From positions 1 to 64,000 of the IMG/VR virus record IMGVR_UViG_3300011587_000017: a stretch of DNA of 64,000 nucleotides. The stretch is one strand, 5' to 3'. The notes under the pieces are model-generated. The model was not told where the DNA came from and made no database searches. It worked only from the letters and a program-made list of their open reading frames with translations. Position numbers and translations under genes: made by a program. Origin of the DNA: an uncultured virus (IMG/VR IMGVR_UViG_3300011587_000017) (taxonomy: Duplodnaviria > Heunggongvirae > Uroviricota > Caudoviricetes). Of this stretch, positions 3,698 to 38,812 are shown piece after piece; the first letter of the stretch is position 1, and every line of letters begins with the position of its first letter.

Positions 3698-4774
3698 CTA
3701 TGCCCTAGCGGCCATTTTTGACGCTATTTTCCTGCCCCAGTCATTCGACGGCTTTTCAAGTAGGCGGTAGGTTATGCTTGCCACACAAATTACGATGACT
3801 GCCGTAACTAGCAGACAGGCCACGTAGGTCGCGACATGCCCAAAATCCCACTCTCGCATCTTTGCGTAAAATGGAAATAAGGCGGCAACAATTGGTCCGT
3901 GAACAAGGTAAACAGAGTAGCTAATCTTCCCCAACCATGACGTGCATCGGTTAACAATGAAGCTAGGCTGTATCTGGCTCATACCAACCACGAGACACGC
4001 GAACATCAGTCCCTGCCAGTAGTAAGCAGGCACAAACGCAACTTGTCCTTTGACTATCGCAAAAAACAGAACTGGCACCGAACCTAACAGGATGAGCGCG
4101 ATACCTCTAGAGTTCTTAGAATTACGCAGGAGTGGGACGGCGTAAAAAGCTACCAAACCAAACATAAAAATCGGAGCTCTATAGAAGATCGAGTACATAT
4201 TGTAAGTGCCGGGGTCGGCAACGAAAATATGTATCACACTATAAAAAATCGCTGAAATCGTTAAAGCGACTGCAACCGCAAAAATGCTTTTATAAATATC
4301 CCTCGTCCGATGGTACACAAACGGGAAGATGGCGTAGAAGGCCATTTCAACACCGATGGTCCAGCCAGCAATTACAAGAGAAGTCTGGTAGCTATGCCCC
4401 GGTATGAAGTTGAATATGAAAAAGACATTAGCAAGCAGGGTGTTGAAATTGAACGTAAATCCAGCAGGATTGAAAAAATAAGTTACTACGATCATCAAAT
4501 AGAAAAGCGGCGCGATGCGAAAAAAACGTCGTAGAGCGAAACCTAGTAGAGGACGTTCTTCTTTTGCGTGACCAGGCATACTCAGGCATAGAGAGAAGGC
4601 ACTCAGGACGAAGAATAATTCAACGCCCATAACACCATTTGTCACGTAGACGCCAAACCACTCCGGCAAATAAAACGCAGGCTGAGGCATATTCGCAACG
4701 TGAACCATAACGACCCAGAGCGCAGCAAAACCACGCAGCGCATCAAGGTACTGAATTCTATCTTTTGTGAGCAT
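3698..4774 (-). CDS. Acyltransferase-3 family (OafA/Oac-like) membrane O-acyltransferase
   Basis: LDALRGFAALWVVMVH, GVELFFVLS, RRFFRIAPL, WTIGVEMAFY, LGKISYSVYLVH motifs; about 10 TMs. Confidence 0.92.
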   Translation of the reverse strand: MLTKDRIQYLDALRGFAALWVVMVHVANMPQPAFYLPEWFGVYVTNGVMGVELFFVLSAFSLCLSMPGHAKEERPLLGFALRRFFRIAPLFYLMIVVTYFFNPAGFTFNFNTLLANVFFIFNFIPGHSYQTSLVIAGWTIGVEMAFYAIFPFVYHRTRDIYKSIFAVAVALTISAIFYSVIHIFVADPGTYNMYSIFYRAPIFMFGLVAFYAVPLLRNSKNSRGIALILLGSVPVLFFAIVKGQVAFVPAYYWQGLMFACLVVGMSQIQPSFIVNRCTSWLGKISYSVYLVHGPIVAALFPFYAKMREWDFGHVATYVACLLVTAVIVICVASITYRLLEKPSNDWGRKIASKMAARA

Positions 4775-29504: not shown

Positions 29505-29981
29505 TCATGGCTCGACCTCCAAAGAGTGCTTCACATCTTCTAGGGCTTGAATGGCCTCATTGATTTCTTTGAGGATATTCTTTCGATCAGCAACGTCGAT
29601 CCGGTCGTCTTTCCGGGCTTCAATGATCGCCTGGGCAACATCCATCGTTTCTTTCATGACGCGGGTGGCGTCTGATTCAGTAACCTGAGCACTACGGAAT
29701 GCTTTGCCGGCAGACGTCTGGGAAGGTATCAACTTGTAGCCGAGCAGTTCCGCCGCAACTTTGATGATCAGGGGGGATTTCAATCTGCGATCAACTTCAA
29801 TCGCCACATCAAGCGGGATGAAATGTTTGCGGAACTCATCGTTTTCGGACGCATATTTTGACAGCGTAGAGGTACTCACCCGCGTGAAAGGCAGTAGGCA
29901 GGTAATCCCACCTGCGAGCGTGTATCCGCCGTCAGTTGCCTTCTTAAGAGAAAGGCGCTCTTGCTCGGAAATTGTGCGCAC
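29505..29981 (-). CDS. Phage regulatory CII-family protein
   Basis: LKKAT..LAGG, STLSKYAS, FIPLDVA; downstream of cro. Confidence 0.65.
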   Translation of the reverse strand: MRTISEQERLSLKKATDGGYTLAGGITCLLPFTRVSTSTLSKYASENDEFRKHFIPLDVAIEVDRRLKSPLIIKVAAELLGYKLIPSQTSAGKAFRSAQVTESDATRVMKETMDVAQAIIEARKDDRIDVADRKNILKEINEAIQALEDVKHSLEVEP

Positions 29982-30298
29982 GAAAACACCCCCGAAAAAT
30001 CAAGGAAAAAATATCGACAAAGGATTCAGTGAAACTCGAAAGCGCCGCCGTTATAGACGGAACAACGCAAATCTACGGAGGGCTAAATGCTCGAAAGCGA
30101 CCCGCATCTAGTGACTGGATTTCCCGTGTTGCGATTAGCTCGCCAATCAGGGCGAGAACAAACTCATCAGCAGCATCGCGGCGTTGCGCAGCTTCCCATG
30201 CCTCAAACAGCTTGGACATGGCGGAGCCAGACCCACTACCCGTCAGCGCAGATTTGATATAGCCATTTACAAGTTTGGTTTTTTCCCGGGGGTCAATC

Positions 30299-30994
30299 AT
30301 GGGACAACTCGTCACTACCTGCCCGCATTGCAACGCGGTTGATATTGCTCTTGAGCTTTTTGGTGCAAAACCAATTGGACAAGATCAGAAAACGGGCGAA
30401 TGGCGGGCGGCGGGAGGAGCTGTTTGCCGCCGATGCCGTAATGCAATAGGCGTATCTATTGTAGCGCCACCAGCAGCTTTCGGCACGCTTAGTGATTTTG
30501 ATAGCGCGCTCGCAGAACTCTACGACGATCCGGTGGTCACTCTGACTGATATCAACTGCAACGGTTTTGTTGTGAGGACCCCTGAGCAAACTACTGAAAC
30601 ACCAACCTCGTTGCCTGACGCAACCCTTAGATCGTTCAGCGCAGCTGAAAAGAACTTTCATCTTGAAGGGTGCGAAGATGCATCCGCGATCATGTATCGC
30701 CGGGCAATCGAAACTGCCATTCATACCAAGCATCCAGATGTTACGGGTAACTTGCTTCAACGCATAGACAAGCTGGCTGCCAAAAACCTTATTCCAGAAG
30801 CCATGAAAGACTGGGCCCACGAAATAAGACTCATTGGAAACGACGGCGCGCACGGCATCGACGGTGTTACCCGTGAAGAGCTTACGGCATCTCGGGGGTT
30901 CACCGATGCGTTTCTGCGATATCTCATTTCCTTGCCTGAAGAGGTACGTCTTAGACGTGAGGCGCGAAACGCGCCAACAATTGGAAACGTGTGA
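30299..30994 (+). CDS. Zn-ribbon plus DUF4145 (HEPN-like) protein, moron
   Basis: CPHC and CRRC pairs; ASAIMYRRAIE, LLQRIDKL, IRLIGNDGAH (R-x4-6-H). Confidence 0.85.
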   Translation: MGQLVTTCPHCNAVDIALELFGAKPIGQDQKTGEWRAAGGAVCRRCRNAIGVSIVAPPAAFGTLSDFDSALAELYDDPVVTLTDINCNGFVVRTPEQTTETPTSLPDATLRSFSAAEKNFHLEGCEDASAIMYRRAIETAIHTKHPDVTGNLLQRIDKLAAKNLIPEAMKDWAHEIRLIGNDGAHGIDGVTREELTASRGFTDAFLRYLISLPEEVRLRREARNAPTIGNV

Positions 30995-31005: not shown

Positions 31006-31398
31006 TCATCGCGCGCCCTCCCCGGAAACAGACGCTGGAGCGCAGACAGCCGGAGAGCGCTGCGCCCCAGCTTCGCCCGGCGGGAGGTTGCCGAGCGAAT
31101 TAGAACTGGTTGCCGGAGCGCCCGGTTGGGCGGGGGGCTGCTTGATGGGCGCCCCGGCATCATCACCCGCCGAGGAACTGGCGGGGGAATCAGACTTCCT
31201 TGAAACGGACTTGGCGAGAGCCTCATAAGTGACTCCAATTAGACCCCGCGCCTGTGCCGATAAGACAACCGCTTCCCAGTACTGAGAAGGTATAACGCCA
31301 CGTCTTTTCATCGCTTTGGCGGTGCCATAGGCGACGCAAAGATCGTCAGCAAAATCGGCCAGTGACGGCCACTTTTCGATGAAAGGAATATGTGTCAT
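31006..31398 (-). CDS. Cro-like repressor with low-complexity C-terminal tail
   Basis: WPSLADFADDL.V.YGT...MKRRG.IP..YW HTH; divergent from cI. Confidence 0.75.
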   Translation of the reverse strand: MTHIPFIEKWPSLADFADDLCVAYGTAKAMKRRGVIPSQYWEAVVLSAQARGLIGVTYEALAKSVSRKSDSPASSSAGDDAGAPIKQPPAQPGAPATSSNSLGNLPPGEAGAQRSPAVCAPASVSGEGAR

Positions 31399-31406
31399 GT
31401 GTGAAT

Positions 31407-31483
31407 GGGTACTATTAATACCCTTTCGCGTCAAGCGCGATAGTTATTACTTATACCCGATATCGTGGGTACAAATTACACCA
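31407..31483. promoter_or_regulatory. Three 17-bp operators GGGTA-N7-TACCC (OR-like) and cro promoter TTGACG-17-TACCCA
   Basis: Sites at 31407-31423 (perfect arms), 31442-31458, 31467-31483. Confidence 0.75.
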
Positions 31484-31866
31484 TGACTAAAAATGCTGAA
31501 AAAAAAGAGCGTGAGGACAGGGCCGTCAGGCTTCAGAACGCGCGAAGGAAAGCAAGCCTCGGCGGAGCAAAAGCTCTATCCGATAAATTTGGCTGGAGCG
31601 AAAACAATTACAAAGCACATGAATCCGGTCGAAATGGATTTGGTCTTTCAGACGCTCGAAAATATGCAAAAGCTTTCAATGTTTCAGTAGCTTGGCTGTA
31701 CCTTGGAGAGGGTGCCGAAACCGACGAATATGCGGAAGTAGACGACATCAGGTCGGAGGTAATAGACCTCTTCGACAGACTTCCAGCAAAGGTTCAAGCG
31801 GTTGTCCTTGATCATATTCGCGCACTAGCAGCGATAGACAAGAACGACAGTCCCTCATCTGACTAA
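31483..31866 (+). CDS. CI-like XRE HTH repressor without S24 peptidase domain
   Basis: RLQNARR...YKAHESGRNG...YAKAFNVSVAWLYLGEG; only 127 aa, short helical C-terminus. Confidence 0.88.
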   Translation: MTKNAEKKEREDRAVRLQNARRKASLGGAKALSDKFGWSENNYKAHESGRNGFGLSDARKYAKAFNVSVAWLYLGEGAETDEYAEVDDIRSEVIDLFDRLPAKVQAVVLDHIRALAAIDKNDSPSSD

Positions 31867-31933
31867 CAGAAAGCGAGCAGATAAGGCTGCAAAATTCAGC
31901 CCTAAGTTCACTATTATTTTCACCCTCACTCAT
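31748..31933 (-). CDS. Candidate SOS-induced antirepressor (61 aa)
   Basis: Preceded by promoter and LexA box; resembles the CI C-terminal helices. Confidence 0.55.
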   Translation of the reverse strand: MSEGENNSELRAEFCSLICSLSVSQMRDCRSCLSLLVREYDQGQPLEPLLEVCRRGLLPPT

Positions 31934-31947
31934 CTCCCACCCGCAAT

Positions 31948-31991
31948 GTTCTCATTTCGTTCATGAAAGCACTGCGGGCGAAGCGGGTCAA
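31948..31991 (-). promoter_or_regulatory. Sigma70-type promoter with alphaproteobacterial LexA box
   Basis: TTGACC (31991-31986), 17 nt, TTTCAT (31968-31963), then GAAC-GAAATGA-GAAC (31962-31948). Confidence 0.8.
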
Positions 31992-32007
31992 GGGTAAGTT
32001 TGCATCG

Positions 32008-32090
32008 CGGCATTTTTCATACCCATAATTCATAGTGGGTATTTTTTGTATCTTTTTAGCTTGACAGTTTGTGGGTACATATAATACCTC
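32008..32090 (+). promoter_or_regulatory. Three operators (OL-like) and early promoter TTGACA-18-TACCTC
   Basis: GGGTA-N7-TACCC variants at 32008-32024, 32037-32053, 32073-32089; TTGACA at 32061. Confidence 0.72.
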
Positions 32091-32176
32091 TTTCCTGCCC
32101 CACCTAAAACCGGCTGCGCTGGATTGGGTAAGAGTAGAAAGCGCAGTCGGTTCTCCGGGGTTAAGCGGAGAGACCA

Positions 32177-32599
32177 ATGTCAAACATCATTTTTATGGCC
32201 AGACTGAAAGGCGGTAATTACCGCTCGAACGCCAATCGCGCTGAAAAACTTTTAAAAGCTCACGGCTTTTCCGTTGGACGCATGCAGGCCCATCAGCCGC
32301 GTGGCCTTCTCTATGGCGAGTTCGACATTCAGAAATGGCGAAATCTAAGCCAACGGGATCGCGAGCAATTGGATGGTCTGCTGTCCGGTCGTCATGTGCA
32401 TCACGGTGACATTTCCATTGAAATACTTGATTCAGCGCCTTCGGAAGCAGTGCAGAAACTCGCTCAGGCATTTGCCCTTGAAGATGGTGCGACCATCATT
32501 GTCGCACCGTTGACCACAGCCGCATCCAACGCGGCAGAGAACTCAATTAGCGAGAGAAGCCAGCACGCCGCAAGCATGGGAGTCGCTCCTCATGCATAA
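32177..32599 (+). CDS. Hypothetical early protein
   Basis: First ORF after the early promoter, GGAG RBS. Confidence 0.65.
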   Translation: MSNIIFMARLKGGNYRSNANRAEKLLKAHGFSVGRMQAHQPRGLLYGEFDIQKWRNLSQRDREQLDGLLSGRHVHHGDISIEILDSAPSEAVQKLAQAFALEDGATIIVAPLTTAASNAAENSISERSQHAASMGVAPHA

Positions 32600-37518: not shown

Positions 37519-37539
37519 TGGTGACACTGTGGTGACACT
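37519..37539 (+). repeat. Integrase arm-type direct repeat
   Basis: TGGTGACACT twice, 1 nt apart, just before int. Confidence 0.65.
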
Positions 37540-37558
37540 AAATCAAAAGGCAGGGGTA

Positions 37559-38812
37559 ATGGCGAAGCTTACAAAGACGATATTGGACGCTGCAGAACTG
37601 CGTGACAAGCCATATTTTATATGGTGCACAGACCTAGCAGGTTTCGGCGCGCGCGTGTTCTCGTCGGGCAAAAAGACTTTTTATGTCGACTATTATACGA
37701 AGACTGGCGACCGCAAAAGAATGTCGCTCGGAGCTTTTGGCAAGCTGACCGTTGATGAGGCCCGGAAGATGGCCCGCATCACGCTTGGTGACACATTGCG
37801 TGGTGAAGATCCCCTGCTTGAAAGACAAACGCGTCGCGGTTCAATTACAATCTCGGAGCTATGCGACGATTATGTAAAGGCTGCTGAAAAGGGCTTAATC
37901 ATCGGGCGCAATGGCAAACCGAAGAAGATGTCTACGCTTGACACCGACAAGGGCCGGATAGAACGACACATCAAGCCATTACTTGGCAAAAAGCTGGTCA
38001 TCGAAATGAGCCGCGCAGACGTGGCGAAATTCATACGCGATGTTACTGCGGGCAAGACAGCGTTCACTGGCCAGTCAGATAAGCTCCGGGGAAAGATTGT
38101 CGTGTCTGGCGGTGCAGGTACAGCGTCTCGTACGACAGGTTTGCTGGGAGGGATTCTTACCTACGCAGTCTCGGAAGGGATCATCGAACACAATCCAGCA
38201 CAGGGTGTGAAGCGCCCCGCCGATGGCAAGCGAGAGCGCCGTCTAACAGCGGACGAGTTTAAAGCTCTTGGGAAAGTTTTGGCTAATGCCGACGAAATGA
38301 CGTGGCAAGCGGTCAAAGGCACACTGCTCCTGATTTATACAGGGAGCCGCCTAGGGGAGATTGTCAATCTTCGTTGGGAAGAGGTCAGCCTGGAGGACAG
38401 ATGCTTGCGGTTTGGAGATACGAAAACTGGCGCATCGATACGGCCGCTGGGGTCTCCTGCGATCAAAATACTCGAAGGCATAAGGCCGCCAAACGCAAAA
38501 GGCTGGGTGCTTCCAGGACCGCGCAATCCGGAAAATCCGGTGGGTTCACTTGATGATATGATTGATAGTATAACTAAGGCTGCCGGCTTAACCGGAGTAA
38601 CAGCTCATACATTTCGTCACAGCTTCGCGTCAGTTGGCGCTGATCTCAACTATTCGGATAATACCATTGGGGCTATTATCGGCCATTCATCAGGCACGAC
38701 CACAAGTCGCTATACTCACCGGTTAGACAGCGTTTTGATCGCCGCAGCGGATTCCATATCAGAAGAGGTGGACCGTCAGCTTATGGGAAAGCCCGCTAAG
38801 AAGCCCGCGTAG
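37559..38812 (+). CDS. int: Tyrosine integrase with arm-binding domain
   Basis: N-terminal GFGARV..SGKKTF; catalytic R (TGSRLGE), K (DTKTG), HTFRH, IGH, Y (RYTH). Confidence 0.95.
   Translation: MAKLTKTILDAAELRDKPYFIWCTDLAGFGARVFSSGKKTFYVDYYTKTGDRKRMSLGAFGKLTVDEARKMARITLGDTLRGEDPLLERQTRRGSITISELCDDYVKAAEKGLIIGRNGKPKKMSTLDTDKGRIERHIKPLLGKKLVIEMSRADVAKFIRDVTAGKTAFTGQSDKLRGKIVVSGGAGTASRTTGLLGGILTYAVSEGIIEHNPAQGVKRPADGKRERRLTADEFKALGKVLANADEMTWQAVKGTLLLIYTGSRLGEIVNLRWEEVSLEDRCLRFGDTKTGASIRPLGSPAIKILEGIRPPNAKGWVLPGPRNPENPVGSLDDMIDSITKAAGLTGVTAHTFRHSFASVGADLNYSDNTIGAIIGHSSGTTTSRYTHRLDSVLIAAADSISEEVDRQLMGKPAKKPA

Follow-up and report, generated by a model that had tools for sequence, protein, structure and literature searches.

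How might an alphaproteobacterial prophage sense DNA damage when its repressor cannot cleave itself? The question is raised by the 64,000-nucleotide stretch of uncultured virus DNA analysed here (the window), in which a short cI-type repressor gene is met at its 3' end by a small ORF that runs towards it on the opposite strand from behind a LexA-type box. Comparison with related loci indicates that this module is real and recurrent, and suggests that it is most likely an SOS-gated antirepressor mimicking the repressor tail, which would offer a concrete, testable account of SOS sensing by alphaproteobacterial prophages whose repressors lack self-cleavage. The features on which the argument draws are listed below; the coordinates given in the initial annotation for cI, the promoter hexamers, the box, the 61-aa ORF and the 119-nt overlap all proved correct.

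29505-29981: cII-like gene (PHROG search)
31006-31398, minus strand: cro-like gene, divergent from cI, with its ATG at 31398 and a product of 131 aa; relatives have similar divergent ORFs
31407-31423 and 31467-31483: putative CI operators of GGGTA-N7-TACCC type between cro and cI (pattern scan)
31483-31866, plus strand: cI-type repressor, 127 aa (PHROG 4/8/2328 repressor matches, Pfam HTH, AF2)
31741-31830, plus strand: cI C-terminal helix-turn-helix core, residues 87-116, presumed oligomerisation surface, kept in short relatives
31748-31933, minus strand: convergent 61-aa small ORF, candidate antirepressor, overlapping cI by 119 nt
31823-31912, minus strand: repressor-tail-like core of the small ORF, residues 8-37 (leave-one-out tail profile, hhalign register)
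31948-31962: alphaproteobacterial LexA box GTTC-N7-GTTC (GAAC-N7-GAAC on the minus strand), exact motif, 14 nt before the small-ORF start
31963-31991, minus strand: putative promoter TTGACC-17-TTTCAT (TTGACC 31991-31986, TTTCAT 31968-31963), abutting the box
32037-32053 and 32073-32089: putative CI operators ahead of the rightward early operon (pattern scan)

A short repressor in a lambda-like immunity region

The head of the repressor is an XRE helix-turn-helix (HTH) of about residues 2-74, followed by a C-terminal domain of two helices, which the AF2 model of cI (pLDDT 84.9) places at residues 88-98 and 102-121. A Pfam search of the 127-aa protein returned HTH_19 and HTH_3, both under the curated cut-off, together with a weak TRCF match, and found no peptidase S24 domain. 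The nearest labelled relative, the repressor of Ochrobactrum sp. S46, shares 91% identity with cI, and the host of the prophage is an Ochrobactrum-like bacterium. By analogy with SinR and AimC, residues 87-116 of cI would form the oligomerisation surface.

The immunity region is lambda-like, with cro-like, cII-like and replication genes on one side of cI and an early operon ending in integrase on the other; the head and tail genes of the prophage are located further left. The cro-like gene (31006-31398), which has no PHROG match of its own, leads into the cII-like and replication genes, and its product, at 131 aa longer than the about 80-100 aa of relatives, carries a long low-complexity tail. 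On the early-operon side, the region upstream of the small ORF holds putative operators, a 140-aa ORF and a DNA methyltransferase. The GGGTA-N7-TACCC-type repeats that flank cI are presumably the CI operators, and a hairpin with a T run at 32019-32042 could mark the end of the cI transcript.

Within the early lytic region, a DUF4145 gene (30275-30994) between cro and cII is encoded on the opposite, plus strand and is probably a lysogen-expressed moron. Between the tail-fibre and lysis genes, an O-acetyltransferase gene (3701-4774, minus strand) is likely to be a serotype-conversion moron. After the integrase gene (37529-38812), a second phage region with tail sheath, head protease and exonuclease matches occupies window positions 39500-64000, and the record appears to hold two tandem prophages.

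A LexA-type box behind short repressors

A published account (PMC7987155), in its accessible part, gives GTTC-N7-GTTC as the LexA motif of alphaproteobacteria. In a Pseudochrobactrum genome with a copy of the module, the exact box is found upstream of recA and of one of the two LexA-domain genes, consistent with the box at 31948-31962 being a host-type LexA site over the promoter of the small gene. The layout of this promoter recurs, with TAACAT, in L001 and L134, both of which were found by protein search. A sigma-70 consensus scan of 31200-32300 called no promoter, because the -10 hexamer of TTGACC-17-TTTCAT is without the usual A at position 2. The window contains two exact boxes, with 2.19 expected; the other, at 4069, is inside the O-acetyltransferase gene and is probably a chance occurrence. 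The box, the promoter and the pairwise alignment of the ORF with the cI tail do not rise above chance when taken alone; significance comes through the relatives.

The link between a short cI and a LexA box, drawn by the initial annotation for this locus, indeed recurs. Among repressor relatives gathered by protein search only, and with the box counted in either orientation, an exact box is found within 250 nt behind the repressor stop for 10 of 29 short repressors but for none of 48 long ones (>160 aa, mostly S24-type), with a Fisher p of 1.8e-5. This p value is optimistic, since the loci share ancestry and two of the profiles used as queries came from modules first found by the DNA pattern. 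This count drops two duplicates and excludes L296, L298-L300, L306, L310 and L311, which are DNA-pattern finds or repeated ids. Within phage records only, the box stands behind 7 of 9 short and 0 of 16 long repressors, and the background is 17 of 1162 windows, the 10 included. Seven of the 10 boxes (L297, L301, L305, L291, L316, L293, L312) point the opposite way to the box in the window, which suits an operator rather than a transcribed signal. Neither an exact box nor a tail-like ORF is seen for 11 of the 29 short repressors.

Two cultured phages share the layout, namely Atu_ph08, in which the ORF is unannotated, and POI1126, whose short repressor is accompanied by an exact box and by a convergent gene that is annotated as gp72. 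In POI1126 (L292) the box is located inside the annotated 5' part of gp72, so that the annotated start may be too far upstream, and this is the sole module with a different overlap phase. As far as the accessible text of the two reports goes, POI1126, which may also have a second, cleavable repressor, was recovered by mitomycin C treatment (PMC5492332), and UV induction of Atu_ph08-infected cells, among which lysogens may or may not have formed, was unsuccessful (PMC6630229).

The module recurs across distant repressor clades and varies in its parts. Six modules with tail-like convergent ORFs have no exact box (L320, L321, L322, L323, L326 and L328, all beside short XRE genes of Rhizobiales); a divergent cro-like gene accompanies L321, L322 and L328, but no such gene was noticed beside L323 or L326. 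In L293, L303, L312 and L314, the same slot and overlap phase are taken by another type of convergent ORF, which is 76-83 aa long, not tail-like, and starts 130-136 nt behind the repressor stop; these four loci represent two HTH clades, and two of them have an exact box.

A loose box-plus-promoter pattern matched at least 117 stretches of viral contigs, mostly noise and with no HTH neighbour at E<0.001 among the matches listed, and was set aside; a stricter pattern occurred in 4 of 401 Rhizobiales genomes, where only the already known L134 module had an HTH gene. A clade-C profile gave 24 matches in 21 of 301 genomes, and no exact box was found behind any of these 24. Beyond the window, near an excisionase-like gene at the far end of the record, a 90-aa four-cysteine ORF (95339-95067, minus strand) begins 35 nt after an exact box (95375).

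A convergent gene that resembles the repressor tail

There are signs of the small ORF being maintained as a protein-coding gene. Scans by DNA pattern, blind to protein sequence, led to 11 separate loci where an HTH gene (E<0.001) lies upstream, and all 11 contain a convergent ORF of 51-63 aa. Together with protein-found cases, these loci form a set of 25 modules (start codons chosen by eye); left out of it are the 11 short repressors that lack such an ORF and the 4 whose ORF is of another type. In 24 of the 25, the two genes overlap in a single antisense phase, although this phase is stop-free in only 9 of 75 control windows taken from the heads of the same cI genes. The conserved phase sets the third codon position of each gene against the second of the other, an arrangement that Rogozin et al. 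(2002) are said to have found favoured by true convergent overlaps. Less clear are the dN/dS values between close pairs, which for the core range from 0.2 to 0.9. In a related strain, read by hand, the only substitution outside cI leaves the ORF product unchanged, but both of those inside the overlap alter the peptide (C32Y, V52A), which counts against coding.

The product of the small ORF is predicted by AF2 to form helices at residues 3-19 and 23-41. It has no PHROG match at E<=0.01 and no Pfam match at E<=0.1, in searches whose sensitivity is limited for short proteins. Protein searches with small-ORF profiles returned only one query member and one repeat protein. Gene callers seem to miss most genes of this kind, as a profile search of 1.84 billion representatives returned a single family member and the ORF is unannotated in Atu_ph08. 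A further point against coding is a competing GTG at 31929 in another frame, with a stronger predicted ribosome site (-9.1 kcal/mol, compared with -7.0 kcal/mol for the small ORF); this 24-aa frame was set aside because its start is absent, by eye, from the closest module, L200.

The initial annotation had aligned the ORF by eye with the tail of its own cI. As a pairwise alignment this is not significant (score 17, 5 of 30 identities, p=0.73 by shuffling), and across the modules only 10 of 25 pairs reach p<0.05. The register itself, however, is exactly that obtained when the small-ORF profile is compared with the tail profile by hhalign (probability 95.4%, E 1.8e-8); a smaller hhalign comparison (A3 vs A1) gave a probability of 25% and an E of 7.7e-4. 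With a leave-one-out tail profile, from which the own repressor is excluded, none of 500 shuffles scored as high as the ORF in the window, and 22 of 25 small ORFs were at p<0.05. Reversed sequences, which keep the helical periodicity, scored lower in 24 of 25 cases. Residues 8-22 of the small ORF, which are encoded outside cI, match the tail profile alone (p=0.0005), as does the portion outside cI in 12 of 14 testable modules (p<0.05); the likeness to the tail is therefore not a shadow of the cI codons. The AF2 models likewise show matching helix-turn-helix arrangements in the cI tail and the small ORF. By these profile comparisons, the candidate antirepressor is homologous to the repressor's own presumed oligomerisation helices at the level of the family, not pairwise at this locus, with the qualification that pairs of short amphipathic helices are commonplace and that the loci, being related, do not count as independent samples.

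These results bear on whether the ORF has a function at all. It could be an antisense shadow or a decayed duplicate, with a box that is there by chance or serves another gene, and the chance-level box count, the non-significant pairwise alignment and the dN/dS of 0.2-0.9 would all be at home in such a scenario. We consider it very improbable given the box enrichment, the profile match, the conservation of the phase and the recurrence across distant repressor clades; in addition, the next gene on the other side of the box (32177) is more than 200 nt away and behind its own operators.

Whether the peptide tracks and contacts its own repressor was approached by scoring and by structure prediction, along lines that the initial annotation had proposed. 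Cognate peptide-repressor pairs score above non-cognate ones (p=0.03 for 21 pairs; p=0.0095 for 15 pairs, one per close group), and this preference is absent within HTH clade B (p=0.93), so that the anticipated co-variation is modest overall and fails in that clade. When cI residues 80-122 and peptide residues 1-44 were predicted as a complex, the score was 0.35, against 0.00 for the best control; the runs shared at least 96% of their contacts, and the partner pLDDT was 71. The tool grades this score as weak support: of 157 solved complexes only 18 passed with 0.60 or less, and of 215 mismatches 2 passed, both within that range. Likeness to the solved SinR-SinI or AimC-AimX structures could contribute to the score. 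Foldseek found nothing for cI at E<=0.001, and the best Z for the peptide in a fold search was 4.8. The C-terminal domain of CapH could be superposed on the peptide at an rmsd of 0.9 over 35 residues, with a Z of 4.2 that is not significant.

The weak cognate specificity in clade B also suits a peptide that binds CI without inactivating it and instead tunes it, by affecting operator preference, re-establishment of lysogeny or the repressors of co-resident prophages. The six modules without an exact box point in the same direction, as do the Gifsy antirepressors, which are reported to act across prophages (PMC3121763, accessible part). Such a tuning role is hardly likely, in our view, because the box marks repressors without self-cleavage and is absent behind 48 of 48 long ones, a distribution that fits a substitute for induction.

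The two genes meet in a fixed geometry. In 19 of 25 modules, the two 30-residue cores meet tail to tail and overlap by only 5-11 nt, so that each core lies opposite the variable tail of the other gene. Together with the single phase in 24 of 25, this is the basis for a possible, if doubtful, origin of the antirepressor as an inverted (fold-back) copy of the 3' end of the repressor gene. Tail, mirror-image decoy and LexA promoter would then make up a portable cassette, exchanged many times with S24 on unrelated heads and open to rewiring to other signals, as in the box-less modules, or to replacement of the decoy by the second, unrelated peptide. Against this, almost no symmetry is left at the DNA level (third-position identity 0.1-0.5), and a single old origin with tight packing accounts for the geometry equally well. 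Fold-back RNA between the cores is not evident in the window (-47.9 compared with -42.8 +/- 3.8 for shuffles); it reaches about 3 SD in L001 and stays below 2 SD in four other loci. When the DNA-binding heads are placed on a tree (64 rows and 87 columns, without the matches of the clade-C profile; many forks poorly supported), S24 tails and boxed cassettes are interleaved, with 8 changes for each label, at least 5 of them forced by well-supported branches. This interleaving is a further basis of the cassette idea, against which the small number of columns counts. The two ways of sensing SOS thus look interchangeable.

The proposed switch and its precedents

Directly established are the anatomy of the module, its recurrence, the link between box and short repressor, the family-level homology of peptide and tail, and the signs of a protein gene. 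We put the probability at about 75% that the module is a prophage SOS switch, in which a LexA-repressed antirepressor stands in for a CI partner within the oligomer; the steps that we infer are transcription, LexA binding, CI oligomerisation, direct binding and induction. In the lysogen, CI would oligomerise via its two C-terminal helices and hold the operators on both sides of cI, with host LexA on the box keeping the convergent promoter off. DNA damage would trigger RecA-dependent cleavage of LexA, allowing the 61-aa protein to be made. Its helix-turn-helix would then replace the CI partner at the C-terminal domain, yielding CI-peptide complexes unable to hold the operators, and with CI off its operators the cro and early operons would be expressed.

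The convergent transcript would necessarily be antisense to at least 119 nt of cI, and no terminator-like site was found on the minus strand before 31371. The 5' leader of the small ORF is short and its predicted ribosome site modest. Each of these properties could equally belong to LexA-gated transcription that shuts cI down by antisense pairing or polymerase collision, the ORF being secondary or additive. That mechanism seems improbable to us, as it leaves unexplained both the tail-like helices encoded outside the cI coding sequence and the fixed, stop-rich phase, and as a phiW23 start-codon mutant transcript over the whole repressor is reported not to induce (bioRxiv 10.1101/2025.11.23.689978, available text). 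Where the initial annotation had envisaged a dual protein/RNA switch, the comparative evidence and, weakly, the complex score favour the protein half, and the non-inducing start-codon mutant transcript of the AimX/AimC system speaks against the RNA half. The proposed displacement of CI by a tail mimic is open to trial in the cultured phages Atu_ph08 and POI1126.

The AimC-AimX-AimL extended arbitrium switch of Bacillus phi106-family phages achieves antirepression by a C-terminal-domain heterodimer, according to the available text of the preprint, which compares it explicitly with SinI and reports antisense RNA to be without effect (bioRxiv 10.1101/2025.11.23.689978). As described there, it has in common with the module a small HTH repressor, a helical C-terminal domain and a divergent cro-like gene, and AimX is a convergent ORF of 29-80 aa that sometimes overlaps the repressor gene, as the 61-aa ORF does here. 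Upstream of the AimX ORF, phi106 has a LexA site, whereas in the module the LexA motif and the host are alphaproteobacterial. Unlike arbitrium, the module has no aimR-aimP beside or directly upstream of the small ORF; it adds family-level sequence homology between peptide and tail and a fixed tail-to-tail geometry, whereas for AimX the same text reports structural replacement only. Foldseek matches of cI to AimC entries (9iaq, E 0.06; 9sf2, E 0.14) are no better than those to other HTH proteins. By analogy, the module would work like AimX but is not a member of that system, given the missing aimR-aimP and no demonstrated homology. This precedent, unnamed in the initial annotation, lowers the novelty of the module.

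SinR is a chromosomal biofilm regulator, encoded with SinI by chromosomal tandem genes that are not known to be under LexA, whereas the module is a convergent overlap inside a prophage immunity region. The two nevertheless resemble each other in what is proposed, since in the B. subtilis SinR-SinI pair an XRE repressor is inactivated by a small helical mimic of its oligomerisation domain, as related in the available preprint text (bioRxiv 10.1101/2025.11.23.689978). Foldseek relates cI weakly (E 0.075) to the SinR-SinI entry 1b0n.

Coliphage 186 Tum and N15 AntC are LexA-repressed antirepressors of non-cleavable phage repressors. In the Gifsy prophages, as far as the accessible report goes, the repressor is not cleaved and the small antirepressors GfoA, GftA and GfhA are under direct LexA control, a layout that the module shares by sequence (PMC3121763). 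Compared with the Tum, AntC and GfoA families, the ORF of the module is distinct in its overlap with the repressor gene, and PHROG and Pfam searches gave it no match. TF-smORF modules and Qtip also employ small proteins to inactivate phage cI, as proposed here, but are described in the accessible text as SOS-independent and governed by a dedicated transcription factor, whereas the gate of the module would be a host LexA box (PMC10432266). A search of the literature open to reading, preprint supplements such as the AimX sequence lists aside, found no description of this alphaproteobacterial module. SPbeta antirepression is reportedly the subject of a second preprint (10.1101/2025.11.27.690993), and PraR-CinS that of one paper (PMC4149787).

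If the proposed switch is correct, the convergent decoy reported in 2025 from arbitrium phages of Bacillus would extend to Gram-negative hosts without arbitrium, the descent of the decoy from the repressor tail would be visible, and the presence of the cassette would predict the induction mode of a prophage. What the module would add to the known systems is an alphaproteobacterial host range, homology between decoy and tail at the level of sequence, a constant tail-to-tail arrangement of the two cores, and interchangeability with the S24 domain on shared DNA-binding heads.
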